Under the pieces are notes generated by a model. The model had not been told where the DNA came from, searched no databases, and worked only from the letters and a program-made list of their open reading frames with translations. Shown one piece after another: positions 11,214 through 50,352 of a stretch of 64,000 nucleotides of DNA. A program made the translations under genes and the position numbers. Each line of letters begins with the position of its first letter. The first letter of the stretch is position 1. Origin of the DNA: Squalus acanthias (lineage: Eukaryota); NCBI GenBank assembly GCA_030390025.1, contig CM059432.1, positions 43,340,001 through 43,404,000 on the forward strand, written 5' to 3'.

Positions 11214-11259
11214 TTCTTCCTCCCTAAAAGGTTTGGAAGTCCAGTCTTCCTTTAACGGA

Positions 11260-12264
11260 CTAGGCGGACCAGAAATAGCCGTAGACGTTTAGCTCTCTGC
11301 TTGTGACTGGAAGGCACGTCTCCCCGGACCGTGTCCTGGTCCCTGGGTCGCTTGGCCCGTACCGGTAAGTCAGTAGAGTCCGCGTCATCTTGATCATCCT
11401 GTGGAGGACTGGGAATATTATGACTCCGGGTGCGGGTCCCCACAGGTGCTGAGCTGGCCTCATCCCAGGTCGTGGCTGGAGATTGTCCGGCGTCCTGGTT
11501 TCGGGTGGCCATCCTACGGGGAGCGTCCAGCTCCCTGAGTTGATCCGGTAGCGTTGCCGGCAGATCCCCCGATGTCCCAGGCGGGGCGTCATTTTCATAG
11601 GGGTGCGGAGTGTTGATATCATTGTCGGGGATCCTTCATCATTCGGGCCCGTGTGACCGGTTGGGCAGGGAGCCAGATCTCGGAGCGAGACGGTGGTCTC
11701 CCGGCCATCAGGGTACCGTACGTGCGCATACGTGGGGTTTACCTCCGTTAACTCCACCTCGTCAACGAGAGGGTCGTTTTTGGCAGACCGGACGAACCTC
11801 CGGAGTAGCACCGGGCCTGGAGCCACCAACCATGACGGTAGAGACGTCCCATGTGTAGAGTGACGCCGGAATTTGAAGAATCGCTCATGAGGCGTGACAT
11901 TAGTAGATGTGGAGAGAAGAGACCTGATAGAGTGTAACGCGTCGGGGAGCACCGTTTCCCACTGCTGGTCCGGCAGGTTGCGTAACCTTAGTGCCAGACA
12001 GACAGCGTTCCAGATGATGGCATTGTATCGTTCAACCTGTCCGTTACCGATTGGGTGATATGGTGTCGTCCTACTTGAGGCGATTCCCCGTTGGGAGAGA
12101 TAACTTTTAAGTTCACTCGACATAAAGGAGGGACCCCGATCAGTGTGGATAAAATTGGCCGTCCCGCAAAGGGAAAAGACCTGATCGAGGCATTTAATTA
12201 CCGTAGAGGTAAGCATATTAGGGCAGGGGAAGGCGAAGGGAAAGCGTGAATACTCGTCCACCAT
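11260..12264 (-). pseudogene. Gypsy integrase core and C-terminus, frameshifted from the upstream ORF
   Basis: Motifs VDEYSRF, HTDRGPSF, NGQVERYN. The frame break at ~12265 falls inside the integrase core, so it is probably a small deletion. Confidence 0.85.
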
Positions 12265-15188
12265 CGTAGGTAGGTGTTCCTTGTCGACGAAGGCAATGGC
12301 CCTTTAAAGTCTATGCTGAGCCTCTGCATAGGCTGCATTGCATGTATGAGTAAGCCATCTGATGGGCGAAAGAATTGTGGTTTCAATTCTGCACAAATCC
12401 TACAGGAGGAGCATGTTTTCTTTACGTCCTCGGTTGAAAATGGTAGATTTTTGGAGCGCACAAAGTGCAACATGCGGGTCACACCAGGATGGCATAAGTC
12501 CATATGCAAATCCGCCAGAGTCGACGTTGACATTGAGGAGCAAAATGCCCGTGTGAAGGTATCTGGGGCCACGTTCTGTTTGCCGGGTCGGTAACAGATA
12601 GTATATCCAAAGGCAGCCAGCTCCATCCTCCAGAGTTGAATTTTATTATTTTTGATTTTCGTGCGCCTCCGGTTATCCAACATGAAGGCCACAGAGCGCT
12701 GGTCAGTTATAAGCGTAAAATGACGCCGAGCAAGAAAATGACCCCATTGGCGTACAGCCTCGATGATGGCCGTAGCCTCCTTCTCGACAGGGGGGTAATG
12801 GAGCTCGCTACCCTGCAAGGTTCTGGATAGGAATGCCACGGGTCGGCCACCTTGATTCAAGGTAGCGGAGATCGCCACCTCCGATGCATCGCATTCGACC
12901 ACAAAAGGAAGATTTTCGTAAATGGAGCGAAGCGTGGCTTTCTCCAGCTGTCGTTTGAGGAGGTTGAAGGCAGAAATAGCCGTAGCTTCCAATGGAAAAG
13001 ACTTCGCATGGAGCAGGGGCTGTATTTTATCGGAGAAGTGTGGTATCCATTTTGCGTAATAAGCAAACATGCCAAGTGCCCGACGAAGAGAGCCGAGGTT
13101 CGTCGGGGGAGGGAGCTCCTGAAGTGGACGAAGTCGTTCTGGGTCCGGTTTAATAACACCGTTGCCCACCCAGTAGCCAAGAATGTTCACCGATGGCACC
13201 GACTTCACCGATTTGGATTCGTTTAACGTTAAGTGGCGACGGCGGAGTACGTCAAAAAATCGCTGAAGATTGACGTCATGCTCCTTTTGATCATGGCCGG
13301 CAATAGTGATATTGTCTAAATACGGAAAGGTATCCGTCAAGTTCTCTTGCCGGACTAGGCCATCCATGGCCCGTTGGAAGACGGCCACCCCATTGGTGAC
13401 CCCGAATGGAAGGCGGCGAAACTGGAAAAGCCGACCATTGGCCTCAAAGGCCGTATACTTCTTGTCGGAGTCTTGCAGTGGCACTTGATGGTACGCGCTT
13501 TTTAAATCGAAGGTCGAGAATACCTTGTATTTGGCAAGGTTGTTGACCATGTCATCTATGCGTGGCAGCGGGTAGGCATCCAGATCGGTATATAGATTAA
13601 TAGTCTGCGAATAATCGATACACAGACGTTTTTTATGTTGTTTTAAGGGATTCCTCACGATGACGACCTGAGCCCGCCAGGGAGATGAACATGGCTCGAT
13701 AATACCGTCGACTAAAAGGCGAGAGATTTCCGCCTCAATAAACGCTCGATCGTCTTGGCTAAAGCGCCGCGATTTGGTGGCTATGGGTTTACAGCGGGGG
13801 GGAAGATTGGCAAACAGGGAGGGTTCACCGAGTAAGGCCGCCGAGAGTGCACAAAACGGCACCTTAGAAATGGTAAGCTCCGGCCTTGACCCTCCAAACT
13901 CAAAAGTGATCTTCTTGTGCTGCTTCTGGAAGTCCTGTCCCAGAAGCACATCGCTGCATAAGTTTGCGAGTACTCCGAGCCGGGTGGAGAGATACGTGCG
14001 GCCGTTGAGGATGAGGTTGACCAGACAGAAGCCAGAAGAATTGGTGGTCAGAGTCGTCAGAGCCATTGCAATCTCCCTGTCCGAGGGATAAATGTGCAGT
14101 TTTAACCTGTTGACAGCCCGCTTACTAATGAAGCTGTCAGAGCTGCAGGAGTCGATTAGCGCGCTTAGAGTGTGCCCACTTACTGAAACCTTCGTGTCTG
14201 CATGGGACAAACTTTGGGGAAAAACAGCCATGATGGGAGGAGGGGCAATTTTCCCTTCGGCAACTGTAGCCTTAACAGTAGTTCTTGGGGGAGGAGCAGC
14301 TCCATAGATAGCAGCTGTGAAGCTAACAGGAGCTCTCGACCGGTATACTTTAGAGGAGCGGCCTTTCTTGTTAGCAAAGGCCCGTGACTGGCATACCTTG
14401 GAAAAGTGTCCTTTCTTGCTGCAATGATTGCAGGTTACATTACGAGCCGGGCAAAATTTTCTGTGATGGCACGCCCCTCCACAAAAGAAACACTTTCTTC
14501 CTGATTGCCAGGATGCTGCTAGGGCGGGGTCGTCATCAGCGAAGGCCTCTAGGGTAGGGTCGTCGTCCGTTAGAGTAGAGTCAACAACAGTGGGGGCATC
14601 CGCCCAAGACCTACCGAAAGACTCATTAAAGGAGATAGCCGCCGCCCGTGCACGTGGTGGGAGATAAGTGTCTGCATTTTTCTTGGCCAAGTCCAAGGAA
14701 CACGCCTGGTCATAAGCAGCCCGTAAATTGAGGGTTTTATTTTCCAGCAGGCGCTGACGTATAAAAGGGGACGCGATTCCATTGATAAAGAAATCGCGGA
14801 TTAGTTCCTCTTGATACTGTTCAGCTGTAACTGCTTTAAGGTTACAATCCTTGCTGAGCCTGCGAAGTTTCTGGAGAAATTCATCGAGTGATTCCCCAGG
14901 CTGCTGCCGAGTTGTGGCCAGTAGGTGTCGAGCAAATATTTCATTTGGGGACTTGACATATAGCTGCTGTAAGATTTCGATAGCAGTGTCATAGACTATA
15001 CAGTCCTCAATATAATCATACACATGAGGAGACACGTAGTTGATAAGCATTCGTAACTTATTAGGGACATCCGCCCCACATTCTTCAAGAAAGTTGCTAA
15101 AGGTACGAAACCAATGCTTCCATACCTTCGCTGCCGCAGGTGCATTCGGGTCCAGGTCGAGACGAGCGGGTCTAAGGAGTTTTTCCAT
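12198..15188 (-). CDS. Gypsy Gag-Pol polyprotein (gag, zinc knuckles, protease, RT, RNase H, IN N-terminus)
   Basis: 996-aa ORF with CFFCGGACH..C and CNHCSKKGHFSKVC knuckles, ALIDSCS protease, YLDNI RT motif, CDAS RNase H and H..H..C..C integrase zinc finger. It shifts frame shortly after SIDFKGP. Confidence 0.93.
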   Translation of the reverse strand: MEKLLRPARLDLDPNAPAAAKVWKHWFRTFSNFLEECGADVPNKLRMLINYVSPHVYDYIEDCIVYDTAIEILQQLYVKSPNEIFARHLLATTRQQPGESLDEFLQKLRRLSKDCNLKAVTAEQYQEELIRDFFINGIASPFIRQRLLENKTLNLRAAYDQACSLDLAKKNADTYLPPRARAAAISFNESFGRSWADAPTVVDSTLTDDDPTLEAFADDDPALAASWQSGRKCFFCGGACHHRKFCPARNVTCNHCSKKGHFSKVCQSRAFANKKGRSSKVYRSRAPVSFTAAIYGAAPPPRTTVKATVAEGKIAPPPIMAVFPQSLSHADTKVSVSGHTLSALIDSCSSDSFISKRAVNRLKLHIYPSDREIAMALTTLTTNSSGFCLVNLILNGRTYLSTRLGVLANLCSDVLLGQDFQKQHKKITFEFGGSRPELTISKVPFCALSAALLGEPSLFANLPPRCKPIATKSRRFSQDDRAFIEAEISRLLVDGIIEPCSSPWRAQVVIVRNPLKQHKKRLCIDYSQTINLYTDLDAYPLPRIDDMVNNLAKYKVFSTFDLKSAYHQVPLQDSDKKYTAFEANGRLFQFRRLPFGVTNGVAVFQRAMDGLVRQENLTDTFPYLDNITIAGHDQKEHDVNLQRFFDVLRRRHLTLNESKSVKSVPSVNILGYWVGNGVIKPDPERLRPLQELPPPTNLGSLRRALGMFAYYAKWIPHFSDKIQPLLHAKSFPLEATAISAFNLLKRQLEKATLRSIYENLPFVVECDASEVAISATLNQGGRPVAFLSRTLQGSELHYPPVEKEATAIIEAVRQWGHFLARRHFTLITDQRSVAFMLDNRRRTKIKNNKIQLWRMELAAFGYTICYRPGKQNVAPDTFTRAFCSSMSTSTLADLHMDLCHPGVTRMLHFVRSKNLPFSTEDVKKTCSSCRICAELKPQFFRPSDGLLIHAMQPMQRLSIDFKGPLPSSTRNTYLRWWTSIHAFPSPSPALICLPLR

Positions 15189-15288
15189 GATGTATCAGTT
15201 TCTTGCCCTAGTTCCCTTCTGTGGTTCGAGTTGCAGCTGGTTGTTCCGAATCACCCAAAGCGTGGAGACGATATCAAGTTGATTAAAT

Positions 15289-15503
15289 TGACGTAATAAA
15301 GACTCACTACGCACTTGAACATAAAGCAAGGCTTTAATCAACTTGTAACAAAACATGGAGGTCTAGTTAGCAGTCACTAGCTTCCTGTTTCCAGATTGTC
15401 TCTGCCCAAGGTGGGCCCATGCCTGAGTATTTATACTCCCTGGACGGCGCCCCAGCTGGCCGCCCAGTAGTACTTCCTGAGTTCTTACTTGCGATTTATG
15501 ACA
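15289..15503 (-). repeat. 5' LTR of Gypsy element
   Basis: Direct repeat of 10999-11213. TATAAA and ATTAAA are present on the minus strand. Confidence 0.95.
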
Positions 15504-16983
15504 TATATATATATATATACACACACGTTTGATTGTGACCCTGGTAATCAAGGCTGATTTACCAACTTCCCGGATTATTAAGGGCATGGACACTACCCTT
15601 TACAACCCCACCCCCACTCCCACCAGGGACTGGAGATTTACTCACCACCACACTATTAAGAATCAGCTACATATTTCATATTAGTGCAGCAAGGAACTCA
15701 GACCACATTCCTCCCCCAGTTAGTCCTCCAGGGCTTGGATTCCCACACATTAATCACCAGTATGAAGTGGCACTCACAAGAGCTCGGGAGCAAGAAATCA
15801 CAGGCACACAGCCCGTGACTTTGTGACCATTTTTTTAACAGTGGAAGATTGCAGGCTGAGCAGCTATGATGTGCTGTCTATGCCCACTGTGGACATGGTA
15901 AAATGAAATTGGCCTCAATGATAGCAAGGGGTCCATTTTTCTCTTTAGTAAGAAATAGATAACACCATTTTCTGTCAATTTTAAAGGGCACAGAAAACGT
16001 TAGCTTGGTCGTGATTTCCCTGCAGTTTGTATCATGAAGCACAAATTTAACGGTGGCGATGACAGAAAACCGGCCAATTATGATCCACCTGGAATACTGT
16101 TCCTTTCACAGATTTCAATCAACTAACTAATCACTTAACCAGTATACATGATGACTAGTCAAACCATTTATAAAACCGGGACAGAGAAATGATAGTTCAT
16201 GGTACAATCAATAAAAGAATTGATCTTCTTATTGGCAGAGGTGAGATAACTATCAAACTGCAGAGACAAAGAATGGAGAAAAATATAGCAGACCAGGTGT
16301 GTTCAGGGAGAAATGGAAGGAAGTCCAGAAGATGCTCCTCAACATCAAAAATGATCATCAAGGTAAGGGTAAAATATTCATGTAAAATATTATCAAAGGC
16401 CATATATGGAAATGATGAATGTATATGGACTATATGTTGAGTAGTTTTTAATTTGTCAATTTGTCCTCTCTTAATAGGGTCAGATGGACATCTACATGGT
16501 TTATAAATTTAAAGGGCTAATTTTGATTGACACTGAAAAATGTCAAAATTTTAAAAAGCCACTTCACTCTACCTTAATCTATTCTGCTTTTATTGTTGAA
16601 GGCAAAAGTGGCAAATGATCAGAGGGCAAGAGCTTTTAAGAGAAACAATTAACAGCATATAAGAACAGACTTATTCGGTTAATAAGGGAGGCTTTCAATG
16701 GCTTTGGGTCTGATGAGATTGGAAAAGCATACAGACATATATTCTGTGCGTTGTTCCAAAACCTACATCACTGTGTCCATATACACTGATTTTTCCACAT
16801 AGTTCATATAATAACAATCCAATACCCAAATGGATGTGCGTTTTTGTACTCATAATGTCCCATCTGTTCCTTTCACAGAGCAAGGAGAATCAACTAGTTT
16901 CTAGTGCCAAGGAAGTCAACAACAACTATTACCATTCACACTTACATGCAGCATCAGCACAGATACAGACACCTGCAACCTTT

Positions 16984-35286: not shown

Positions 35287-36447
35287 CTAGAAGCGGCTTG
35301 CTATCAGCCGATGACGGACGGCCCTTGCAGTTTCACCATTGTGGGCCGCCCTCCCGCCTTGGTGCTGCTGATGATCATCCTCCTCATCCTCTTCCTCCTC
35401 TTCCTCCTCCTCCTCTGGTGGTGCTCCAAGGCCTGGTGGCATTGGCTGGGTCCTGACGATTGCCATGTTATGCAACATGCAGCACACAACTACGAAGTTG
35501 GATACTCGCCCAGGCGAGTACTGCAGGGCTCCTCCAGAATGGTCGAGACAGCGGAACCGTTGCTTCAGCACGCCGATTGTGCGCTCAATGATGTTCCTGT
35601 TAGCTTGATGGCTCTCGTTGTACCGCAGCTCAGCAGGGGTGTTGGGCGTACGGAGCGGTGTCATCAGCCAGGTGCTCAATGGATACCCCTTGTCCCCAAG
35701 AAGCCAACCAACTGGCTGATGCGGTGCCTCGAAAAGTTCTGCCACAGTAGTCTGGCGCAGGATGAAAGCATCGTGGCAGCTGCCAGGATAGTGGGCATTG
35801 ACAGCGAGTATCAGCTGTCTGTGGTCACAGACCAACTGAACATTCAAGGAATGGAACCCCTTTCTGTTCCGGAAATCCTCGGCATTCTCATGTGGAGTAC
35901 GCAAAGCCACATGCGTGCAGTCAATGTCGCCCTGCACCATGGGGAAGCCCGCTATCCTCGCAAAGCCCAGAGCGCGGTCACACTGCTTGTCTAGGGTCAT
36001 GGGGAAAGAGATGAACTCTCGTCTCCTTTTAAAGAGGGCATTTGTGACCTGCCGGATGCAGCAATGCACCGCGAACTGGGAGATATTGGCGAGGTCCCCA
36101 GCAGCAGCTTGAAATGAGCCAGTAGCATAGAAGTTGAGAGCCACTGTGACCTTCACTGCCACCGACAGAGACGTCCTGGACCTCAGTTGAGGCTGCAGAT
36201 CTGGCTGCAGCAGGTGGCAGAGCTCAGTGACCACCTCCTTGCTGAATCGCAGCCTTCGCAAACACAGCTCCTCAGACATATGAATGTAGGAGAGCTGTTC
36301 ACGATATACCCTGGGAGGGTAAGCTCTCCTGTACAGACGCCTGTTGGCCCTCCTCCGTCTGGCCATCATTGCCACTCTCTCTCTGCGTCTCTGTGTCCTC
36401 CGATTCAGCTGGAGCAGGACGACGCCCCCATTCAGTGCAGCCCCCAT
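35287..36447 (-). CDS. Harbinger DDE transposase (HARBI1-like), ~386 aa
   Basis: Uninterrupted ORF with IDCTHV, NRKGFHSLNVQ, PGSCHDAFIL, LLGDKGY, IERTIGVLKQRFRCL and CCMLHN. Likely ATG at 36447. Confidence 0.93.
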   Translation of the reverse strand: MGAALNGGVVLLQLNRRTQRRRERVAMMARRRRANRRLYRRAYPPRVYREQLSYIHMSEELCLRRLRFSKEVVTELCHLLQPDLQPQLRSRTSLSVAVKVTVALNFYATGSFQAAAGDLANISQFAVHCCIRQVTNALFKRRREFISFPMTLDKQCDRALGFARIAGFPMVQGDIDCTHVALRTPHENAEDFRNRKGFHSLNVQLVCDHRQLILAVNAHYPGSCHDAFILRQTTVAELFEAPHQPVGWLLGDKGYPLSTWLMTPLRTPNTPAELRYNESHQANRNIIERTIGVLKQRFRCLDHSGGALQYSPGRVSNFVVVCCMLHNMAIVRTQPMPPGLGAPPEEEEEEEEEDEEDDHQQHQGGRAAHNGETARAVRHRLIASRF

Positions 36448-39400
36448 AGTCTCTTTGCAAGCAAAGTTATGAAGGACAGCAACCAAAGTACCAGCGAAGT
36501 TAGGATCAGTAGGCAAAACTACCTCACAAAGCGTTGACTCAATGCAGAAGTCTCTCTTTCTCTCTCTCCGAATCTCTCTCTCTCTCTCAGAACGAGTGGT
36601 GCAAAAATGTCAACCACAGAAAAAGACAGGAAGAGGCCCCCTTTAAATAGCGCCCCCCCCAGCCCCACAGCGATTGATAGCGTTCCAGTCTTCCGGTCGT
36701 TGGATGCGCCAGGCGGTAAGGCAGGGGGCGCCACTCAATTTCTGCTCCGGGGCGCTACAAGGGCGTTGCACCATGGAATGACGTCACAATCTGCGCGCGC
36801 AGGTGGTCGCGGCGGTAAAGTTTAGCGCCGCCGCACAATGTCTAGTTAAGTTCCCGAGCGGCGCAAACATCGCTGCGCCCGGGCGCTAGCGGCTTTGCGC
36901 CCCATTAGCGCCCTCTTAAGGCGCTAACGGGAGGCGCAACCAACTGAATTTTTCCCCCTTACTGTCTTCAGCTTGTGCATTAGCTTTTCATGTGGCTCTT
37001 CATTGAAAGTCTTCTGAAAGTCTATCACTGCACCTGTTAACATCTACTTGGGGTGTAACTTCTTTGACAAAAAGTCAAAAGTTCGTAAGGCAGTATTTTC
37101 TCCTTCTGAAACTTTGTTGGCTGCCAGTTACTAGATTGTAATCATATAGATACTCCTCGATATTATTCCTAATGAATGATTTCATTATTTTGTCCATTAC
37201 AGAAGCAAGACTAATAGATCTGTTGTTGCCCAGGTCAGTTTTAGCATTTTGCTTATAAATAAGTACCAAATTATCAGGCAAGTTACAGCAGACTGCTCTT
37301 GTACATCTCCTAGCAGCCTGCTTTAGAGTTGTAATGACATAGGCTTTGGAGCAAGTTGTTTGGTTACTCTCTCTTCTGGGGAATGGGACAACCTGGGAAG
37401 GGACAGAAACAATTGAAAAATGGGGACCTTAAGAAAAACATAGTGGCAATATGTTGTAACTACTTCTGTGCATGGTTAACGAGAACACTTCCTGTTTCAG
37501 CTGAATGACGGAGTTGTCAAAAAAGTCTTTACAATGCTACTTGACACTGCTTTATACTTCCTTTTTTCAAATCATCATTTGAGCTTGCAAACTTTAACTA
37601 TATTTATAGGAGTCTAATGCTTCATTTATTTATTCCTGAACAAGGTGCTGCATTTAGAATAACTGAGTTGCTATATTTTTTATTTTTTAGAATATATACA
37701 TATATATATTTGCTAAGATGCTGAATTACTATTGTGCTGAATTACCATGAGAAATGATTGGGACACAGCAGGAAATATTAAGAAAATTTTAAATCATGAT
37801 AATTAATCTTTGTTATAAATTTGTGTGGCCCAAATAGAGACTGCTATAGTCCTCAAAGGAAACAAATCACCTCTAGGTGAAGAGATGAAGATCAAATAAC
37901 ATGATATAGCTTAATAAGTTCATTTGACACTTATAGTGGCACCAATATTACTTGCATGTCAGTCAGAGAAAAAATGCTATCAAATCCAGTTACCCGATTC
38001 ACAAGATTTACCCCAAGTGCAAGACCTCTAGTTAATAATGTAATTGCCTGCATTAAGATTTATTCACCAAACCTGTTAATATAAAGATGATCACCAATGG
38101 GTGCAGTAGTGCAATTTCAATTAAATAATAGAGATTAATCGGCTTCTGTAATATTCATCAGGTTGACTAAAGGCAGCTAGCTACTAACAGCAGACCTGAT
38201 TTAATCTCTCTGTAATAGGCACAGTGCTTTGTTACAGTAGCTATTATCATATTATTTATTAAATGTCTGCCTGCGTCAATCTCTCAGAAAAGCGATTTGT
38301 GAGATGCCATATGGTAGTACTTATTATTACAACAAAATCGAAAAAGCAGACACACACAAATCAACTATATGACATGGTGATTTTTTTCAGAATGTTGTCA
38401 GTAATTACCAATTGGCAAAGCGATAGCAGAGCTTCATAACCGGAAAATTGAGGACTCTTATTCAGATGTGAATCAAACGTAAAGTACATCAAAAATGTAG
38501 GCTGCAATGCTTACTTCATTAGACACCCATGTATCAAAAACAATTTCCACTAACCAACAATAATATGTTTCATTTAACTTGTCTGCTAGAAGCTAAAAGA
38601 ATTAACTGAAAGCAAACATTTGCAGTGGCAACAACACACTGCAGATTAATGAAACATGCAGTAGCTTCTTTTCCATTGTTTTAATTGTTAGGTTACTGGT
38701 TACCCCCACCCACCGAAGAGTAACTGCTCATTAAGGGAGGAATCATTTCCCCTTATGGTGTTCTGGAATGTATATGCTTAAGTGAAGAGTCTCGCTTTCT
38801 GTATTAGTGATATGTTCATTTGCCATGCAAAAGTGGAAGTGATATTCCAGCCGAAAGGTATATTTTTACAGTACTTCATGACCAGAACGTGCAGCTTCAA
38901 TGGACAAACTGGTTACTGTTCCAGACAGATTGACAAGTCATCATAGAGTCATAACGGCACAGAAGGAGGCCATTCGGCCCATCGAGTCCGTGCCGGACCC
39001 GTTACAGTTTGGCTGCACCAGGAATATTTTAGAGCCTTCTTCAGTTTTTACTTGATTCCAAAAAAATATTGAATTAGGAAATGCTTTGAAATCACATATG
39101 ATTACTTAGTTGTGCTTTATAATACTCAAAAATGTAACATTCTATTTGACCACAAGACCTAAAGCTGCGGAAGACATTCAGTACTGAAAAGTTAACAAGC
39201 TGCCTTTACACAGTATTGCTAGTTTTTGGGGCCAAAACCCGATGGGCCTGTGATCCCGGCAATATGCCAGGAATCGGCCTTCACCGCTGACCCTGACAGA
39301 TCCTCCAAGATCAGGAGCAGTTTTTTTTTTATTCATTCATGGGATGTGGGTGTCGCTGGCAAGGCCAGCATTTATTGCCCGTCCCTAATTGCCCTCGAGA

Positions 39401-39466
39401 AGGTGGTGGTGAGCCGCCTTCTTGAACCGCTGCAGTCCGTGTGGTGAAGTCCGTCACTCTGGTCGT

Positions 39467-41818
39467 TTACGCGGCGCTTTCTTCGTGCACGCGCACGTAA
39501 CGCTCTCGCCACTCTCCCGTGTTTTCCTGTTTGGTGAGGCGCTTGCCTCTCTTGCAGTGCACGACCAATAGGTACACTACAATTATTACCTGGCATACAA
39601 CTAAAATGTGGGAGGCTATTCTAATCCAGGAAGGCACTTCAATATTGGTGAACTGATCCCACCACGGTGGGATTACTATGTCTAGGATCTCTGACCCTAT
39701 CTCGACAGTCTTTTGCTCAAGGGTATAAAAATGTTTCTGCGAAACCGCTACGGCTTTCAAAAGCTTGGTGAGGTGTTCAGGGAGAGGGGGAATGATGTAT
39801 CCGAAATGCGCGACAAATCGCTGCAAGTCGGTGAAATTCTCTTTTACTGTAAGATGAACAGTGGATGGTTCAGGGATTGGGACAATTCGCTGCTGTGCCA
39901 CTTGAACTTCAGCCCTGGGTTTAAAACAGAAACTGCTGTCACTCACCGGACACCGGCTACGGTTTCCATGCTGGTAGTGTTGCGCTGCAGTGGTAACGCA
40001 ATATGTTCCACCCCCTATGTATGCCACCTGCGGAGGCACATGATCTTGTGCCATTGCCTCCATGGTGCAATTCATGGGCTTGGCGCCAGCCATTCTGAAC
40101 CCGCACTGTGGTGATAAAAAGGCATTCAAGTGCTGGGGACACAGGTTTATGTGTGCTCCCCTGTCACGACAACCAGAGAGATCTGTACCTGTCATCGTTT
40201 GCTCCCAGCGGATGACGTAAGGTGGGACCGCTGCGTAGCGAATGTGGGATCCCCCCTGAATGACACCAATGTTCTCTACCCGATACACCGGGGCGGGCTT
40301 TGCTGTGTCGCCCAAAACCGGTATACGTAAGACTATACCCATAATGGTATGGTTTGACCGTCCGCAGTCCACGGGGACTGGGTATGCTTCTGAGGCTAGC
40401 CTGAGCTGGCACGGGCTTAATGCGTTCTGAAAAGGGTGGAGCGCCTGCAGGTGTTTGTTACTTATCTAGGACGGGACCAAACCTTGTTTTAAATCCTCCA
40501 AATTACTGCGGCCCTCGCCCAGTAACCACGCCCCGTATAGTACGCACACCTCGTTCTGCGCAGCTTGATCGGATGCATTCCGATCTTCCCTAATCAGGGC
40601 ATTTACCGTACGCGCATGTTTCTCCAGCTCAGCTATGATTTCTTTTAAGTGGATCGTCATGGCCTGGTCTTCATGTAACCCAGACCCTACCACCTTATTT
40701 TCGTCTGTAAGGATATTCTTCAATTGGGTTTTTAAACCATTAATCTGGGTCTGCAACTCCACGTTATCTAGAGCGTTGACCACAGATGTCCCTGTATTGA
40801 AAGCGGTGAACATGTCGTTCACAACACCCCTTCTTTGTCTCCCCACCTGGCCCAAAACTTCGTGTGGTGTGGTGTACAAGCTTGTCTTGTCAATCTCTGC
40901 AAAATCAAACTCGTAGAATTGTCTAAACATGTTGGTCAACAGGACTTGATATAACTGTTCCGTCTCTTTGGGGCACCACTCTGGCAACCGCACCTCGGTG
41001 AGATTTAAAATCACCGAGGCCACCGCGTAATGTACCCCCTGAAATAGTATCTGGTCTGTGGGGACCAGTACCAAACCATTCCCGGGTCCCTTACTGGTTT
41101 TAGGGCACCCTTCTTCCTGAGCCAAAACTACCGGAATCGTGGGCGGGGCCTTGCGTGGGCGCGTAATGAGTTCAGTGGTGTTTACCGGGATCGGAGAGTA
41201 TGGGGCTCCGCACCCCCTGGTGCTTACATCCCACCTCATCCCCTGCCCGTTATCCTGCCACTGATTCACGAAAAATATGGATATGCCTTTGGGGCAAACG
41301 TGCTTTGACCCCCACATACATACATAGATTCCCTCATCCGGTTCCCACCATTTGTCCCAACAGACTCTCAATTGTCCGTTAGTCCCCGTAATTGTCCGAT
41401 GGGTATTATTACCCAATCGCTCCCATTCAACCGAAGAATTCCTCATATTTCTGCTCAGCTTTCGTAGCCACCACCATCGGCTCAATGGGACATTCCCATT
41501 ACAAGTCAAACAAATCCGTTTGCCGACGGTGATGCTGACTCTGGGTGCGATGATCCTCACTTTGGGGCACATCAAAGAAGTCTCTTTATAGGCAAATCCC
41601 GATGTACTGGAATATTCAGTTGAATTCGTTCCCAGCCATCCTGGCCACCTTCCTTTGTGGAAATAAGTGGCGATCTCCTCAGCCTCTCGCCTCCCGGTCC
41701 CATCCACCGCGATGGGGGCTGTGTCCCCGGAGCATCCAAACACCACGACATCCTTGGTGCGGCCTCGATAGGCCAATCCACATCCAAATGCCGCGAGCAC
41801 TACCAGAATCCGTTCCAT
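39467..41818 (-). pseudogene. env: Envelope glycoprotein (~783 codons) with one in-frame TAG at 40466-40468
   Basis: Signal peptide MERILVVLAAFGCGLA, Ig-like motif, furin site RQRR, fusion-peptide-like GVVNDMFTAFNTGTSVVNAL, heptad repeat, Cys-rich region, TM ILVVCQVIIVVYLLVV and basic tail. ORFs 40466-41935 and 39467-40372 share a frame with 31 open codons between them. Confidence 0.85.
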
Positions 41819-42087
41819 CCTTCCTTGGTTCCTGTGATCAGATAGAATGAGGTAGCCAGCCTCCCAAGAGTCTCTGGCTTTTGTGAAGGATGAGCGGGTC
41901 CCCTGACCTCGCCTCACGTAAAAAGACATGTGCACTGGATAGACCTTTCAACTAAACCTAATCTAAACTCCCATCATTTATCTTTTACTTATCAAATTAA
42001 ACTATCAAACTTACAAACTTACAAACTATAAAACTTATCACTTATCTTATAAACTGTACAGCGCCACCCGTTCCCAGGGCGGCCTAC

Positions 42088-43200
42088 CTAAATTCTGTGA
42101 AGGCGGCCACGAGTTTTTCCCAACGGTGGGAGGGCACCGACCCCTTCCTTTGATCTGCCGCAGCCTGTCTCTGCTGCGCTGTGACTGGGCTCTCCCTGGG
42201 CTGCCTTAGCCTTCAACCTACGCTTTGGGACACTCTGGGGACTTGACCATATCTTCCTGGGCTGGGGTGTCCGACTTGACCTACGGGGAGCTACCGGGGG
42301 CAAGAACTCCAGAACCGACGGACCGGGTTTCGAGACTTCCACCGTCGCGACCTGTGGTCCCACCACAGCCGCTGGCTCCGCCTCCCCTAGCTCCGCCTCC
42401 CTGAACTCGGGATCTGCAGTCTCTGGCACCGCCCTACTTGGCCCAGTAGGCGGCCCTTCACTCGCAGTCCCTACCTCCCCCGAGGGCAAGACTCCCAAGG
42501 CGGACGGACTGGGTTCTGAGACTTCCATCGCCACGTCCTGTGGTCCCGCCACAGCCGCTGGCTCCGCCTCCCCTAGCTCCGCCCCCCTGAGTTCGGGACC
42601 TGCAGCTTCTGCTTCCACCTTGTGTGGACCTCCGCACGCAGTCCCTATCTTCCCTTTACTTGAATCGGGGGCGAACCCTTCGTCCTCCGATCCCAGCTCC
42701 TCTTCGCTCGGGTCACTATCTTGGTCAAGCTCCTTGAACTCTTCCTCATCTGACTCCCAACCCCAATAAAGGATCCTACATTTTGCTAGGATGTCCTCTC
42801 CCCTGATGCAAGCTGCTTTGCCAGCCTGCGTGCCCTGCGGTCCTACCCGGGGCTGCGAGTCCCCACTCGCAGGTTTGGCCCCTGTGGTTGGCCCTTGTGC
42901 ACCCGGCTTATACAGCTTGCACTGGTTAAAATCCTCATACTTCCTGCTTCTGGCTACCCTGCAGGCTGCTTTTATCTCTCTAAGCTGCCCTTCTAGCCCA
43001 TCTATTTTCCCCATTAAGCGGGCGTTCTCCTCCCGTAAGGCCTGCTCTCTAAGCTGCCCTTCTAGCCCGTCTACTTTCCCCATTAAGCGGGCGTTCTCCT
43101 CCCGCAGGGCCTGCTCTTTTAACCTGGCCTCCTTACAGGAGACCCCCTCCTGTGCATGTCTTTTAAAAGGACACAGGTAGGCAGGCTGCGTGGGCTCTAG
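42088..43200 (-). CDS. ORFX: unknown coiled-coil plus acidic/Pro-Ala-rich protein, in frame with gag through a UGA-CUAG stop
   Basis: Open for 370 codons from the codon right after the gag stop. Contains a 2x23-aa coiled-coil repeat, a 2x ~38-aa AELGEAEPAAV repeat and a basic C-terminus. No pol motifs. Confidence 0.65.
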   Translation of the reverse strand, partial: LEPTQPAYLCPFKRHAQEGVSCKEARLKEQALREENARLMGKVDGLEGQLREQALREENARLMGKIDGLEGQLREIKAACRVARSRKYEDFNQCKLYKPGAQGPTTGAKPASGDSQPRVGPQGTQAGKAACIRGEDILAKCRILYWGWESDEEEFKELDQDSDPSEEELGSEDEGFAPDSSKGKIGTACGGPHKVEAEAAGPELRGAELGEAEPAAVAGPQDVAMEVSEPSPSALGVLPSGEVGTASEGPPTGPSRAVPETADPEFREAELGEAEPAAVVGPQVATVEVSKPGPSVLEFLPPVAPRRSSRTPQPRKIWSSPQSVPKRRLKAKAAQGEPSHSAAETGCGRSKEGVGALPPLGKTRGRLHRI

Positions 43201-45024
43201 TCATTGGGTACTGTTGGACGGGGCTGCGGCATCTGTGGGGCCGGTAGCGACTGCTACCCTTCCTTGCGAAATCATGAGGGTCCGCATGGCTCCCAGCATT
43301 GATTCTATCGCATCGGGATGGATATGCACACCAGCTCCCTTATCGGGGGCAGGCGCCTGGGCTCGGGCTGCGGGATTTTTATCCCTGGACTCTTTCCAAG
43401 GGTTCCTGCAGTTCTTGCGCCAGTGCCCTGTCTTTCCGCACCCGAAACAAGCATTACTGGCTTGTGGGACGCGATTTCCCTCCTGATGCCACTCCTTTTG
43501 AGCCGGGGCGGTGGGCCGTGCCTCATGCACCTTTCCCTTAAGGGGACGCGCCCCCGTGCTCCTTGTGTTACGGTATCCTACCGTGAGTCGATTTAAGACC
43601 GACTCCTCTGTTGTGGCGGGGTTAGTGGGATCAAACCACGCTTTTGCCTGCTCCCTGAAGGCTGGCAAACTGTTGGCTACTACACACCTGAGCCAATGAG
43701 TTAAACCAACGCCGTCCAAATAGGCGCGCTCTGGCGCCCCTGGGCAGCTACGCTGGTATACTGGCCACAGCCTGTCGGCGAAAACCTTCAGGAGTTCTCC
43801 CTCCATCTGCACTGTCTGTCCCAATCTAACGAACGGACCTTCATTGTCCGCCCCCAACACTTCCAGGACCTCGTCCCTTAATTCCCCATAGGTATGATCT
43901 CCCCTTTTGCTCGCGTCTGAGAGACACTGTAGGACCGAGCTGTCTAATGAGAACAGCAGCATTTTTGCCTTTTCCCCATCGTCGCAGCCGTTAATGGCTG
44001 CGGTCTGCTCTACCTCCCTGAAATGTACGGAAGGGTCGTCTGACTCGGACAGCTTCCGTATGTGACTGATCATAGCCCTCAGCTGGTGTGCATTATGCGG
44101 CAACACAAGCTGGCTGAGGAGATACCCCGCTTCCCCACCTTCTCCGTTCGGGCCCCTCTTGATACCCGTGACCGGACACAACGGTCCCGGCTTCACTACT
44201 ACTTCAGGGGATTGTACTACCTCGGGGACCTCTTCCTCTACTTCTACCACTTCCTCCCTTACCCAGGTTGCCGAATAGCTGGGTGGCGCGGAGGGCACAG
44301 TGGCAAATACCTCCTCTGCTTTGTTTGGTAGGGATTTTTTGAATTCCCCACCCACCAGCGGCTGGTGTGCTGACGGGCTGATAAGGCACACCATGCCGTG
44401 CGCTTTATTCAGGGCCTCTTTAAGGTTCCCTATCTCTCTCTGGCAGACGCTGTGGTCGGCCCCCTCATGTTTATCTTCAAGGGCCATCTTATATGCCGCC
44501 CTAACTCCCTTCAAGCTTTCTTCTTGGGCTTTTATTTGAGCAGCTAGGCGGGCACATCGTTCCCTGATTCTGCCCTCATTTAATTTTGCCTCAGTGAACT
44601 GGCACTCGAGGTAATCTATTTTAGCCTCATGGTGGTTGGCTACTATCTGGCGTTCCTGATGCAACGCATTTAAAGACGCGATGAGCTGCTGCCCCCCCGC
44701 AACCTTTTCCTCCATCTCCACCACCAAACCCGTGATCTGAGCTGCCTGCGCTACGATGACCTGGTCCGAAAGCTGGACTTGCCTTTTATAACACATCAGC
44801 CAGACCGCTTTCTCTACCGATTTTCTGTGCTCTTTACTGCCTGTCCACCTGATGGCTGCGTCTAGCGGACGCTTATCCACCAGCAGGTCACTTATCCATC
44901 TCTTAGTCAAATTAACCTTACCAAACACATAATCGGCTATTCTCTCTTCCATAACATTTCGCCCATTCATACCAGGGTCTAACACATTACTTTCTCGCTG
45001 CCAGTGTCCCTTCGTGGTCGCCAT
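43201..45024 (-). CDS. gag: Gag (N-terminal helical/coiled-coil region, capsid-like region, CCHC nucleocapsid)
   Basis: 607-aa open ORF directly after the LTR, with zinc knuckle CFGCGKTGHWRKNC and capsid-like DDPSVHFREVEQTAAINGCDDGEKAKMLLFSL. The first ATG overlaps the PBS, so the true start may be a downstream Met. Confidence 0.88.
   Translation of the reverse strand: MATTKGHWQRESNVLDPGMNGRNVMEERIADYVFGKVNLTKRWISDLLVDKRPLDAAIRWTGSKEHRKSVEKAVWLMCYKRQVQLSDQVIVAQAAQITGLVVEMEEKVAGGQQLIASLNALHQERQIVANHHEAKIDYLECQFTEAKLNEGRIRERCARLAAQIKAQEESLKGVRAAYKMALEDKHEGADHSVCQREIGNLKEALNKAHGMVCLISPSAHQPLVGGEFKKSLPNKAEEVFATVPSAPPSYSATWVREEVVEVEEEVPEVVQSPEVVVKPGPLCPVTGIKRGPNGEGGEAGYLLSQLVLPHNAHQLRAMISHIRKLSESDDPSVHFREVEQTAAINGCDDGEKAKMLLFSLDSSVLQCLSDASKRGDHTYGELRDEVLEVLGADNEGPFVRLGQTVQMEGELLKVFADRLWPVYQRSCPGAPERAYLDGVGLTHWLRCVVANSLPAFREQAKAWFDPTNPATTEESVLNRLTVGYRNTRSTGARPLKGKVHEARPTAPAQKEWHQEGNRVPQASNACFGCGKTGHWRKNCRNPWKESRDKNPAARAQAPAPDKGAGVHIHPDAIESMLGAMRTLMISQGRVAVATGPTDAAAPSNSTQ
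45006..45023 (-). promoter_or_regulatory. Primer-binding site complementary to tRNA-Arg(UCG)
   Basis: Minus strand TGGCGACCACGAAGGGAC. The plus strand GTCCCTTCGTGGTCG-CCA matches the 3' 18 nt of vertebrate tRNA-Arg-TCG as I recall it. Confidence 0.85.
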
Positions 45025-45028
45025 TATC

Positions 45029-47526
45029 TGTAAGGGGGTTTCGCCTGGCTCTGTGCTTAGCCTGGGTGCTAGTGCGAGGTTAGGCCTTGTTGCCCGTTCT
45101 GGTCTCCAGCCAGCCTGGTAGCACTAGACACCTGTGAGTGGTTCGACCCACTCGCCCTTACGGTTCTGACACTGGACTTAGGTGCGAGAGCAGTAAATGC
45201 AGAGAAAAACTCAGGTAGACCCGGTTGAATAGTACGAAATGGAAAATCTTTATTGCATATTATTCAAGATTACGAAATACATGTCATAAGCACAGATTAA
45301 TGACAGTACAAACTTACATACATTTATGCAACTAGGTTTAGGGAAACGAGGAACGCACGACACATCGTAAAAGGGGACACACATTATAATTATCCTTAAA
45401 ACAAAAACCCTCCCCTATCAATACCTGTCCTAATCTAGATCTGTAGGATCAAGAACCATGCTCACTACTCGTGATAACTCGGAGAATTCTAAAACGATGC
45501 TCGGATGTTTTCACCACAGCACCTGACTATTCACGTGTTGATCAGGGGTCTCTGTACCCCACTTGTTTACTCGCTTTGCTCCGGCTAGCAGGCTGGACCG
45601 TCTGCTGTCATGAAGATCTGTGTTGACCTCGGAACTCTGATAAAACTCAAAGAAGAGTCTTCCTGTGCCCGACACCGGTTGGCAGTAGAATTCGTGTGGT
45701 AACCTGTAAATGTTCTTTATAGTTCGGGCGCGGTCGGGGTTTACTGATCGCGGCGACACGTGTAGTCGTCTTGGGTCCGGCTGTAGAACTCAAAGAAAAG
45801 TCTTTCTGGACCGACACCAGTTAGCCGGTAGAATTCAAAGAAGAGTCTTTATATTTACGGGCGCGGTCGGGGTTTACTGACCGCGGCGGCACGTGTAGTC
45901 GTCTTGTTCTTCTTGTCTTGTTTCGTTTCATTGGGCCTTCGGGTCCCTACACCGTTTACCGACCCTCAGGATGGTGCACCCGCATACCGGCCTTTGCAGC
46001 CCAGCTCTTCACAGATCTTCGCGGCAAGCCACGAGGTTGACTCCCGGAAGATCAGCGGACCAAGAGCTCGGTGGGCCGCAAACGAGAGCCAGGGGTCGAA
46101 TCAAGAGAAAGATGGACGTTTGTTTACTACAGTTATAGTACTGTAATTCTTTATCTCCCGCCCAATCTTAATGTTCATCTTTTGTCATGTTTTTGGCGCT
46201 CAAACTCCTTGTATGGGGTGGTACTTGTCGTTAATGGGTTTCGGTGATACCTGTAACTGTCTAAGTACCCGTTAATATTTCTCCCATTATGGAACCGGTT
46301 AGGAGTCTCCCTGGAGGGGTTTTGGGGCCCTCCGAATTCTTGCTGTGAGTACCCGCGAACGGCTCTCTCATCATAGAGCCGTGGGGAATTTGCGTATCAA
46401 TGTCTTTGGATGGGCCCTTAATTGCCCAGTACAATAGCCCTCGTTTGTGCATGGAAAACCGATTCCAGCACTTATATTCTCTTAGGTGTACAAAATGCAA
46501 AACGATCGCGTCTTGTCTTATTTCATTATGCTGAGTACTGTCCGATCTTGCTGAAATGTTTATTGAAATGCCATCTTGTCTGCCTACTGAAAAGTCTAGA
46601 AACTTCTGCCACGAGGCGCGGCGGCCATTTTACAGGCTGCTTGTGTCCGTTTTTGAACCTGACAGCATTTTGCTGAAATAAAGCTGTTTTTACGAAACTG
46701 TATGGGCTAAAAATTCGGCTGCTTGCGCCTCCCGTTAGCGCCTTAAGAGGGCGCTAATGGGGCGCAAAGCAGCTAACGCCCAGGCGCAGCGCCGCCCACG
46801 CCTCCCGCAAAATTCAGCGGGAGGTTAGCGGTGGCACCAGCCGGTAGCGCCCTGTGGCGCTGCGCCGCCGGCGATGACGTCATCGCCGTGCGCAGCACCC
46901 CGCTCGCGCTCCAGCCGCGATCTTTAGTCGCGCCCCCTGATTTACCGCCAGACGCTATGTGCGATGGGTTCAGGGGGGCGTACGTGCGGCCAGGGCGGCG
47001 ATATTTAAAGGGGAGGTGGCAGGCGGCCATTTTTGTTGCTGGCCGCCTGCCAGCACCTGCCCCCGTTGCTGTCCCCGGCCCCCGTGAAGCCCCCCCACCG
47101 TGAAGTGCCAGCTGCACTCCAAGAGCCCGGCACTTCTCTTGAGTGCCGGGCTCTTTTGCCAGCACTCCCGATCCCTGGGGGCCCAGCTGGGCCCCGGTTC
47201 GCGATGCGCAGGGCCCCTCCCCTTTAAGAAGGGGAGGAAGGCCTGCAATACCGCGGCGCGACGTGCTGCAGCGCCTGGCGCTGCGGCACGTAGCGCCAGG
47301 ATATTCCCTCGCAGCGCCCCAAGAGGGATGCGGGGTGCTTCCAGTAGCGCCCCGCTTCCCTCTTGGGGCGCAACCACTGAAGTTCCGGCGCGGGGGCGCT
47401 AATTTTTTCGGGGCGCTAAACGTAGCGCCCCGGCGAGGTTAGCGCCCCAAATGGGGCAATACTCAATTTTTAGCCCTATGTCTCTATCTCGTTATTTCGA
47501 AATCGTGATAATTTGCGAATTCTACA
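45029..47526 (-). repeat. Putative 5' LTR (~1.72 kb after removing the MITE)
   Basis: Starts TGTAG exactly at the LINE junction and ends TTACA 5 nt before the PBS. AATAAA on minus at 45249-45254. No second copy is available to confirm it. Confidence 0.72.
46704..47476. mobile_element. Harbinger MITE related to the 32803-36958 element, inserted in the ERV LTR
   Basis: TIRs (GGGCTAAAAATT / AATTTTTAGCCC) and TSD TAT. It shares TTGCGCCTCCCGTTAGCGCCTTAAGAGGGCGCTAATGGGGCGCAAAGC with the reverse complement of the autonomous element's right end. Confidence 0.9.
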
Positions 47527-47614
47527 CTGCAGCCACGGTACGCCGGTGGTGGAGGGAGTGAATGTTTAAGGTGGTGGATGGGGTGTCAATCAAGCGGGCT
47601 GCTTTGTCTTGGAT

Positions 47615-50352
47615 TGAAGGGATAATTACAAGTCCTTGCCCTTCTTGGGCTACCCCAGATCAGGCGTATTCCCCAGACGTTCCCCTTCAACTAGAGTTAG
47701 AGATAGCCGAATCCTCTCAGACGCTTAATTGGGTCTAAAGGTTCAGACTATCTCTCCCTAAAGGAAAGGAACAGCCTAAAGATGTTACCATCCTTCGGAT
47801 AGCACTTTTTACAAGTTTAACTAGACTGTAATCTTCCGGATATTATGAGGGTCCGGAAAACCCCCCAGAATTCTGCAACTCCTCTCAAAGGCGTGTACAG
47901 AAATTGAGTTTGCGAGATTGATACAGAAATACTCTTGGAGACAATTTAAAAAATATATAGATTTATTAAAGAACCGACATTTAGTTAACAGCTGGTATTG
48001 CATTCGCAACTTTAACTGTTCAAAATACAAATAGCTTACATTTCTTATCAGAGATCCTTATTCTCAAATCTTAACTTTGTTACATTTCCACACTTCTACT
48101 TATTTCTTAATCCAGAATATCCACCAAAATCAAATACCTTGATTACCCGAGACTCAGAGTTGTAGGCCTACAGAGTGGTTCTGAAGGCAAGAATCGCTCT
48201 GCCCCTTCCCAGCGACTTCTGACTCTCTATCTGAAAAGCTCTATTTTTATACCTTTTTTAGTGGTATGTTCTTTGAAGTTTTCTGCTGATGTAAGCTAAT
48301 TATCTCCAGCCATTCTTTATTGAATTCTTTTCTATTCTTACTGTCATTTCAGCTGCCAACTTTTAGAATTCTGTCTCTACCTTTAGGTGTTTCAAAAACT
48401 TATCATTTTTATGGTTATTATTGATTTATCTATTTGATGCTATTCTTAGGAAGTCTTTCTATTGAATTCTTAACTCCCTTTAGCTGCTTGTTAGCAGATG
48501 TCGTGTCTCCTAACTATTCCATTTTCAATACAAACACAATGTAATTGCTTGGTGTCATCTATTGATATTATATCTTCAAAGTGTTTTTTAGGTATCTTTT
48601 ACAACTTGTAAATTAAAAACGCTTCATCTAGGGTGTTCTTTGCATTTCTTAGCTATTTCAATTGGTTGCATATTTAATTGTGTTTCCTGTCTTATTTGAT
48701 GTTACTTTTACAAAGGCACATGGTTTTTTTAATGTTCTGTGCACCTGTTCGACGTGTTAGATTTTAACACTTTACTTGGGCATTGCTATTGTTTTGGTAC
48801 CAAACCACAGACTCCTTGGAACCAACTCTTTGCTTCTCCAATAGGGCCTTTGTCTTTGTATTTACAAACCAATTCCCATTTCAAAGCTTGTTTGGTGCTT
48901 ACAGCTTTTGTTATCAACTGTTCTTATCTCAAAAGCCTGTATTGTGTTTGCAGCCTGTGTCCCTGAGTCTTTCCAGACTTTTAAACCCAGTATGTAATGT
49001 ATTAATAATATCAGAAATCTGTTCATAGGATGGTGTATTTTTCTGAAATATGGCTATTCCATTACACCTGAAGATGTTACCATCCTTCGGATAGCACTTT
49101 TAACAAGTTTAACTAGACTGTAACCTTCCGGATATTATGAGGGTCCGGAAAACCCCCCCAGAATTCTGCAACTCCTCACAAAAGAGTGTACAGAAATTGA
49201 GTTCGTGAGGTTGATACAGAAATACTCTGTGAGATCATTTTAAAAATATATAGAGTTATTAAAGAACCGACATGTAGTTAACAGCTTTTGATTTCAATCG
49301 CAACTTTAACAGTCCAAACTACAAATAGCTTACATTTCTTATCAGAGATCCTTACTCTCAAATCTTAACTTCGTTACATTTCCCCACTTCTACTTATTTC
49401 TTAATCCAGAATATCCACCAAAATCAAATACCTTGATTACCCGAGACTCAAAGAGTTGTAGGCCTACAGAGTGGTTCTGAAGGCAAGAATCGCTCTGACC
49501 CTTCCAGCGACTTCTGACTTTCTATCTGAAAAGCTCTATTTTTATACCTTTTTTAAGTGGTTTATCCTTTGAAGTTTTCTGCTGATGTAAGCTAAATATC
49601 TCTAGCCATACCGTTGTTGACTTCTTTCTATTCTTACTGTTAATTCAGCTGTTAGCTTTCAGAATTCTGTCTCTGTATAGGTGTTTCAAAAATCTTATCA
49701 TATAAAATAGTTAGTACAGATTTATCTCTTTGATGCAATTCTTTCGAAGGTCTTCAATTCAATTCTTAATATTGGCTTAACTGCTTGTATTTCAGACTTC
49801 TCGTCTCCTTGTGTTCCAAGTTTAACACATAAACAATGTGATTGCTTGGTACATCTATTGATATAATATTTTCAAAGTGTTCTGTAGGTAACTTTTACAA
49901 TATGTAAATCAAAACACTTCATCTAGGGTGTTCTTTGCATTTCTTAGCTATTTCAATTGGTTGTATATATATTCTTGTTTCCTGTTTCATTTGATGTTAC
50001 TTTTACAAAGGCACATGGTTTGTTAATGTTCTGTTTTTCTGTTCGACATGTTAGCTTTTAACACTTTACTTGGGCATTGCTATTGTGTTGGTTCCAAACT
50101 ACAGACACCTTGGAACCAACTCTTTGCTTCTTCAATAGGCCATTGTGTCAGTGTCAATAACCAATCTTTATCTCAAAAGCCTGTATGGTGTTTACAGCTT
50201 TGTGACTCATCTTATCACAGAAGCCTGTATTTACAGCTTGTGTCGTTGAGGCTTTTAGATTTTTAACCCTAGTTTGTCATGTTTTAATAAAATCAGAATT
50301 TTGTTCATAGGATGGTGTATTTTTCTGAATAGGTTTGGCTCATTCCTTTACA
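47615..50352 (-). repeat. Two tandem diverged LTR-like units (47615-49066 and ~49067-50352)
   Basis: ~1.29-kb direct repeat. Each unit begins TGTAA on minus and has TATAAAAA. The block ends CA and has TSD-like GGAT/AGAT flanks. Confidence 0.7.

Follow-up and report, generated by a model that had tools for sequence, protein, structure and literature searches.

The window, a 64,000-nucleotide (nt) stretch of Squalus acanthias DNA (GenBank assembly GCA_030390025.1, contig CM059432.1, positions 43,340,001 to 43,404,000 of the forward strand), carries on its minus strand an endogenous retrovirus (ERV) with the gene order gag, a 370-codon frame and env, in which a domain search found no protease, reverse transcriptase (RT) or integrase. 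Gag terminates at TGA-CTAG, and the 370-codon frame opens directly behind this stop in the same phase. Comparison with enzyme-bearing relatives suggests that TGA-CTAG is the gag-pro stop of the family, retained in a pol-deleted derivative, and that its predicted minority readthrough probably yields a 978-residue fusion of Gag with what is left of Pol. Positions below are those of the window unless another copy is named.

The gag gene (43204..45024, minus strand) is an intact open reading frame (ORF) of 607 codons that ends in Gln before the TGA. Its product contains a CCHC zinc knuckle (43405-43452, Gag aa 525-540, ACFGCGKTGHWRKNCR) that scores under the Pfam cut-off (zf-CCHC, E 0.0036), is 59% identical to P0001 and 47% identical to P0002, and ends at the same Gln as both; the closest annotated Gag is an uncharacterised skate protein with 59% identity, and annotated skate Gag models include XP_078265527.1 and XP_078287933.1. 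On the minus strand the end of gag reads ...ACC CAA TGA CTA GAG CCC..., with TGA at 43203-43201 and CTAG at 43200-43197. Together (43197..43203, minus strand) they form UGA-CUAG, a Beier-Grimm type II-like readthrough context, the type being defined by UGA followed by CUA(G). The post-stop frame is open from stop to stop between 43200 and 42091, for 370 codons, and the two alternative frames across the same 1110 nt contain 18 stops each. Its first in-frame ATG lies at 43083, 39 codons past the TGA and behind the linker peptide LEPTQPAYLCPFKRHAQEGVSCKEARLKEQALREENARL, and begins a 331-aa ORF (ORFX, 42088..43083, minus strand; we use the name below for the whole post-stop frame as well). An earlier note on this DNA had described a gag stop in TGA-CTAG that reads in frame through 39 open codons into the 331-aa ORF, with a total of ~978 aa. 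The minus-strand letters and ORF coordinates bear this out, the linker peptide is identical, and the fusion length comes to 607 + 1 + 370 = 978 residues. By chance a following frame would be in phase with gag in 1/3 of cases, and CTAG would follow a given stop in ~1/256; the identity of the site as a recoding junction is better settled by descent, since enzyme-bearing sister copies have the same heptamer with an in-frame protease behind it, than by such odds.

One sister copy, L133, is laid out as gag, TGA CTAG, 1496 open codons encoding protease, RT, RNase H and integrase, and then env. It shares gag, env and the borders of the deletion with the window copy, which is without protease, RT and integrase. 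Window positions 45094-43169 correspond to L133 35-1936 at 87.6% DNA identity and positions 42929-39452 to L133 5554-9055 at 91%, while the long terminal repeats (LTRs) of the window family and L133 are ~74-80% alike. Between the two homologous segments, 3617 nt of L133 pol, from protease to integrase, are swapped for 239 nt in the window; the difference of 3378 nt equals 3 x 1126, so the frame is kept across the replacement. The pol of L133 ends in ...LPPLGKARGSLRRI followed by TAGGTAG, the same end as that of ORFX, whose TAG at 42088-42090 is the stop of pol in L133. By sequence comparison, then, ORFX is no foreign or added gene: 11 pro codons lead into a 79-residue insert, which is followed by the final 280 residues of Pol.

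The first of these parts, LEPTQPAYLCP (11 codons, 43168..43200, minus strand), had been raised in the earlier note as a possible residual start of pol. The partner reads LEPAQPVYLCPLSYDAW...DTGAS here, its first residues being LEPAQPVYLCP, and DNA homology breaks off at 43169/43168, which identifies the peptide as the residual start of pro and places the breakpoint. The insert that replaces the pol segment (42930..43167, minus strand) is in frame and contains a 69-nt (23-codon) tandem repeat (42976-43113). A single-sequence model predicts one long helix for aa 22-86, with a predicted local distance difference test score (pLDDT) of 87-97. The partner pol offers only 10-12-nt word matches as a source of the insert. 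The remaining 280 codons (42091..42929, minus strand) comprise the end of the integrase C-terminal domain (NQCKLYKP) and a fast-evolving tail, with ~80% protein identity to the Pol end of L133, a 186-nt repeat at 42294-42630 and mostly pLDDT <50 in the single-sequence model. A public protein, P0006, matches this part at E 1.2e-29, and because it joins an integrase C-terminal domain to the tail, the tail belongs to pol in a relative as well.

Database searches with ORFX returned little else. A homologous-protein search among proteins of 203-648 aa found no relatives, and an exhaustive protein search found only P0006 and P0007, a repetitive coiled coil (E 5.9e-4) whose match to the insert is most likely a repeat resemblance. 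A Pfam lead to Rab11-FIP3 for the insert (26.6 bits, under the family cut-off) was set aside. For the insert and ORFX, no lookalike scored above 0.78 in Atlas and none was found by Foldseek against PDB at E up to 0.001. Among public proteins of 1064-3035 aa there were no longer fused Gag forms, which is weak evidence.

A 25-nt block at 42903-42927, which encodes NQCKLYKP, is 100% identical between two lineages whose Gag proteins are ~42% identical. It occurs as three tandem repeats in L068 and forms the 3' edge of several independent pol deletions (L067, L068 and L070 compared); a role as a hot spot of recombination or as a cis element is possible.

The distribution of the stop context was assessed in a junction census of genome matches with fixed flanks and a free heptamer (n=1074; a reversed-pattern control gave 0). 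TGACTAG is present in 981/1074 junctions, and the first 100 listed comprise 86 TGACTAG, 9 TGACTAA, 2 TGACTGG, 1 TAACTAA, 1 TAACTAG and 1 AGACTAG. Taken without selection, the first 60 matches on contig C1 divide into 24 enzyme-bearing and 36 ORFX-bearing copies; the pol-less form has been amplified in several subfamilies. The 24 enzyme-bearing copies have the same gag end and stop, followed by LEPAQPVYLCPLSYDAWKRPLVEMEVEKQKGSYLLDTGAS... and a retroviral protease, and 16 remain open through all 430 codons fetched. Among the ORFX-bearing copies, 33/36 are open for at least 360 codons past the stop, with lengths of 368-423 codons, and all net length changes are in frame. Checking the heptamer and the frame in other copies, as the earlier note had proposed, has thus come out in its favour. 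Its claim that a gag-pol recoding signal has been kept stands, since sisters with the same gag end and TGACTAG enter protease, RT and integrase; the Gag-ORFX fusion that it attached to this signal is something we infer.

An enzyme-bearing subfamily with TGA-CTAA accounts for 4 of the 24 copies (L099, L103, L113 and L124; G000 C1). The second post-stop codon is changed from Glu to Lys there, and pro-pol is open over 430 codons in 2 of the 4. Because TGA-CTAA copies with open pro-pol exist, G at +7 is not indispensable for propagation.

A second gag lineage, ~42% identical in protein to that of the window, was found by a genome search with the P0002 Gag (9066 candidates, of which 71 were scored). 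An in-frame protease follows TGA-CTAG at 19 of 30 loci of this lineage and TGA-CTGG at 9; the other 2 have lost the frame. The post-stop sequence reads LEPAQPVHLC...DTGA or LEAAQPVYLC...DTGA. Two of these copies, L067 and L068, are complete from gag through TGA and pro/RT/RNase H/integrase to env (RVP, RVT_1, RNase H and integrase domains), and their RT is closest among solved structures to that of MLV/XMRV (E 1.9e-65), then foamy virus, then Ty3. When L133 is compared with L067, no 10-codon block in 200 codons is better conserved than the stop with the 9 codons behind it (nt identity 0.90, third-position identity 0.80). Judged from these alignments, conservation between lineages is stronger evidence for a recoding site than retention within the family. 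Three further deletion forms likewise keep the frame as far as the stop of pol itself, namely L115 (423 codons, integrase C-terminal domain kept), L069 (364 codons) and L070 (547 codons).

In order to evaluate whether the remnant is maintained as coding sequence, copies were compared across subfamilies whose differences from the window copy number 133-272 over ~1070-1100 aligned sites (up to ~24%). When the same substitutions were placed at random, the frame stayed open in 0-7/2000 placements for six tested copies with at least 217 changes, in 27/2000 for a copy with 181 changes and in 118/2000 for one with 133. The ratio of non-synonymous to synonymous divergence (dN/dS), from a contrast of 16 open copies near the window with 31 distant copies, is 0.24 over post-stop codons 12-62 and 0.29 over codons 12-90 (0.55 and 1.56 in the shifted frames), and 0.38 over the last 130 codons of gag. 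A second test considered variants common to at least 2 of 52 open copies, with random placement repeated 2000 times. Over codons 12-90, 26/57 variants are synonymous against an expectation of 16.4 +/- 3.2, a value reached in 7/2000 placements; over codons 12-62, 14/28 are synonymous against 9.1 expected, reached in 79/2000. Two further measures were discarded: the lack of stop-creating shared variants among open copies is circular, the copies having been chosen as open, and a one-by-one indel tally from pairwise DNA alignments is confounded by paired +1/-1 gaps in the fast tail.

The constrained insert could be translated without any recoding, the TGA being a plain Gag terminator, the remnant being made separately from a spliced subgenomic mRNA or an internal start at Met40 or Met63, and the shared frame being a legacy of the in-frame deletion. 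Every open copy does have an in-frame Met at codon 40 or 63. At 40-58 nt past the gag stop there is a run of pyrimidines with CACAG|G behind it, and retroviral Env is made from spliced RNA, so that splice signals must exist nearby. The positions of the start codons speak against such separate translation. Of the open copies, 16 have their first in-frame Met at codon 40; the other 36 have Ile there and their first Met at codon 63, yet the upstream codons 12-62 are coding-like in the gag frame, with the low dN/dS and the synonymous excess given above. The ATG at 43083, that of the window copy, is preceded by a T at -3. Among short contigs from four sequencing runs, those that cross the junction show no joint nearby; this counts weakly against splicing, as the contigs may be RNA or DNA and are to that extent neutral on expression and splicing. 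We therefore regard separate translation as unlikely. With ~50 constrained codons ahead of any ATG in most copies, immediately after the gag stop, readthrough is the simplest entry route, and translation of the insert most likely enters from gag in this way, as far as substitution patterns can tell.

Synonymous divergence (dS) is low just after the stop, at 0.04 over codons 1-11 and 0.12 over codons 12-39, compared with 0.34 in the tail and 0.45 at the end of gag (43084-43200, minus strand; copies L071-L130), with codons 1-7 biased by the search pattern. Beyond those seven codons, the low dS may mark an RNA-level element.

Several observations weigh against a functional fusion made by readthrough. 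The window copy itself is dead, with a stop in env and a missing 3' end. Retention of the heptamer at ~91% is about what neutral decay after insertion would leave, and speaks only for the source copies. The Pol tail is without codon-level constraint over its 280 codons (dN/dS 0.87, other frames 0.76 and 0.68) and gives no signal in the synonymous-variant test (136/448 against 131.9 expected). Few independent changes underlie the dN/dS contrast in the insert: over codons 12-62, a pair differs by ~7 synonymous and ~7 non-synonymous ones. In a shared-versus-singleton test on the 30 closest copies, gag gives an odds ratio of 2.6 (p 6e-16), and neither ORFX (odds ratio 1.3, p 0.15) nor the 39-codon linker (10:8 vs 6:12, p 0.31) is significant. 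With folding tools that do not predict pseudoknots, no single-sequence fold of 57-130 nt past the stop stands out from shuffles (z -1.6 to +1.2), and RNAalifold on 40 distinct ORFX copies returns a hairpin at +17 to +64 with one-sided changes only and no two-sided compensatory pair. UGACUAG alone may give little above 1% readthrough, according to the available part of PMC13517186.

On another account, readthrough may still occur as an inherited by-product and the remnant be functionless, its frame still open through youth, a small number of intact sources or exchange with enzyme-bearing copies. The unconstrained tail and the result for the closest 30 copies fit this account, exchange is possible given the ~91% DNA identity of the tail to enzyme-bearing copies, and env splice signals may explain why the remnant DNA has been retained. 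The helical insert is harder to accommodate: it is exclusive to the pol-less lineage and cannot be refreshed from enzyme-bearing copies, yet it is the most constrained part (dN/dS 0.24-0.29; 7/2000). Subfamilies up to ~24% apart keep the ORF open (33/36), and at least 4 deletion forms in two lineages all run in frame to the pol stop, for which the chance is ~1/81 if they are independent. On balance a functionless remnant seems improbable to us.

Recoding of the TGA as selenocysteine, or a variant genetic code, is far less probable still. TGA is indeed the selenocysteine codon, which is the sole point in favour; a search of 39000-47600 at E up to 1 found no selenocysteine insertion sequence (SECIS) or other Rfam family, its 2 matches lying far under the gathering scores, and ordinary stops, TGA among them, terminate the remaining ORFs of both element and window. 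A stop that consists of TGA followed by C does not fit the murine leukaemia-type signal, a UAG-G context with a pseudoknot ~8 nt past the stop (type III). A 7-bp pairing of +23..+29 with AGGUAGA near +76, considered in pol-bearing copies, was dropped as too thin, its only change, U:A to C:G, being in L070.

Sequence comparison establishes the site, its frame and the composition of the remnant; readthrough of the retained gag-pro stop would act on them as follows. The UGA would occasionally be decoded by a near-cognate tRNA, aided by the CUAG context and perhaps also by the conserved 30 nt after the stop. The minor 978-residue product would co-assemble into particles through its Gag part, as Gag-Pro-Pol would in the partner, and the retained start of pro may hold a cleavage site at which the partner protease frees the remnant. 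As the pol-less copies are without enzymes, protease, RT and integrase would be borrowed in trans from an enzyme-bearing partner. The fusion itself is suggested by a frame that is open across diverged subfamilies, a coding signature upstream of the first ATG and the lack of a conserved start codon. That it favours copying of its own RNA is a guess, by analogy with the mouse intracisternal A particle (IAP) element 1-delta-1. A bolder version, possible but doubtful, is that the pol-less lineage built a new readthrough cargo, a constrained dimer-type helix with a Pol tail, which Gag carries into helper particles at the stoichiometry of Gag-Pol and which tilts packaging, reverse transcription or integration in favour of its own RNA. 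If this is true, the element would parasitise the virus at the molecular level, with the viral recoding signal serving as its delivery device.

The remaining parts of the element were delineated by comparison with other copies. The 5' LTR (TG...CA) spans 45029..47526 on the minus strand; 50 nt at 47526-47477 match the LTR starts of L031, L034 and others, and the end ...CTTACA at 45029 follows from 5'/3' LTR comparison in L133 and L132. Within it, a 768-nt insertion (46709-47476, minus strand) is missing from most copies and has an equivalent in the 3' LTR of L032 (L032:9096-9862), at the same place and 95.6% identical. Inverted repeats lie inside the insertion, as does an open frame of 221 codons (46773-47438, minus strand). 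An alternative LTR start at 46704, with the upstream sequence as a tandem copy, was ruled out, as that sequence is the 768-nt insertion inside a longer LTR. The primer-binding site (45006..45023, minus strand) is complementary at 18/18 positions to the 3' end (+CCA) of tRNA-Arg(UCG), for which a host gene, tRNA-Arg(tcg), is located at L136:1450-1523. It overlaps gag codons 1-7 and begins at the second base of the gag ATG, 5 nt past the end of the LTR, so that there is no LTR-gag leader.

Downstream of ORFX, env (39467..41947, minus strand) is interrupted at 40466-40468 by a single in-frame TAG. The element ceases to align with other copies at 39452, just past env, and the 3' untranslated part and 3' LTR are absent here. 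Intact env genes occur elsewhere, encoding 826 aa in L035 (L035:6570-9047) and 813 aa in L033, and in the intact proteins an RQRR cleavage site near residue 395 is followed by a long subunit. Domain leads for Env are weak (Ig_3 at E 0.18-0.5; Baculo_F in Atlas, score 0.75 only), and the two intact Envs gave no match to PF00523 (F protein) at E up to 10.

In the 3.7-Gb host genome, a 501-nt junction query returned 2820 candidates, of which the 40 scored are 94-100% identical to it. Some junctions recur on one strand at a spacing of 7.72-7.8 kb (G000 C1:143657953, 143665676 and 143673394; C1:204985255 and 204993060), which equals one LTR plus one internal part; these are tandem arrays of the pol-less element with shared LTRs. 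The window also contains a Ty3/gypsy-like pol (10994-15504, minus strand) with frames of 998 and 347 codons (protease, RT, RNase H, integrase) between two 221-nt repeats that are 99% identical, a DDE_Tnp_4 transposase frame (35287-36609, minus strand; E 8e-40) and two copies of a 1.29-kb tandem repeat (47775-50329).

If readthrough occurs as proposed, the family would combine UGA-CUAG with a gag-pro junction of retroviral type that has no evident structure, and a lower vertebrate would thus provide a simple, natural setting in which to test context-driven readthrough. The family is also a natural experiment: despite the deletion of its enzymes, repeated amplification has preserved the recoding site and the frame, together with a newly gained helical module. 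Such retention points to a role for the C-terminal extension of Pol or for the fusion as such, with IAP 1-delta-1 as a parallel. Behind hundreds of gene models annotated as "gag-only" in genomes of cartilaginous fishes there may be a longer product of readthrough.

Retroviral gag-pol readthrough in its textbook form uses UAG and a pseudoknot. The available part of PMC13517186 describes it as type III, with UAG-GGA and an H-type pseudoknot from +12 in Moloney murine leukaemia virus (MoMLV) and UAG-GAU in walleye dermal sarcoma virus (WDSV). L133, L067 and L068 resemble these viruses in having gag and pro-pol in one frame, with a single stop between the zinc knuckle and the DTGA of protease. The family differs from them in its UGA-CUAG or UGA-CUGG, with no structure standing out, where they have UAG, and the window copy differs from gammaretroviruses and epsilonretroviruses in that protease itself is gone. 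UGA is also found at the gag-pro junctions of SSSV (UGAAGA), ZFERV (UGACGA) and the toad ERV RMEV (UGAAGU), where readthrough is predicted (PMC13517186, in part). These share with the present family a UGA rather than a UAG at a lower-vertebrate retroviral gag-pro junction, in contexts other than CUAG.

The hexamer UGACUA is a known readthrough signal with intrinsic basal activity, and UGACUAG gives readthrough of at least ~1.3% in human genes, as stated in the available text of PMC13517186. The same portion of that source lists UGA-CUA for alphaviruses and a triatovirus and UGACUAG as conserved in 23 human genes, and retroviral junctions are not among the cases it names. At the alphavirus nsP3/nsP4 junction, Sindbis virus (UGA CUA ACC) and o'nyong-nyong virus (UGA CUA GAC) share the hexamer, the latter being one base off the UGA CUA GAG of the window. 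These alphavirus and human cases concern replicase or cellular genes and not a gag-pol junction, and alphaviruses often add a stem-loop from +9 to +16. A literature search, judged by titles, found no retroviral UGA-CUAG gag junction, and titles on cartilaginous-fish ERVs contained nothing on this family.

Like lokiretroviruses and snakehead-like ERVs, the family has a second RNase H-like domain (the tether) and an Env whose subunit past the cleavage site is long, and a lineage similar to lokiretroviruses or the snakehead retrovirus is possible for it. The lokiretrovirus Env is F-like according to the available part of PMC7947760, which in that part does not mention readthrough, frameshift or stop codon. 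The snakehead retrovirus differs in having UAGGGC at its junction (PMC13517186, in part).

The closest parallel for the deletion itself is mouse IAP 1-delta-1, likewise an internally deleted, non-autonomous provirus with an in-frame deletion and an enzyme-bearing partner. Its deletion creates a gag-pol fusion that acts in cis, and it outnumbers the full-length partner in new insertions, as reported in the available part of PMC6466679. IAP 1-delta-1 lacks env and has gag and pol joined directly as a single ORF, whereas in the window family stop readthrough would be needed, all enzyme domains are lost, a helical module is gained and env is kept. Together, these comparisons suggest that retroviral gag-pol readthrough with a type II context, kept in an IAP-1-delta-1-like deletion derivative, is a new combination of component kinds that are each known.

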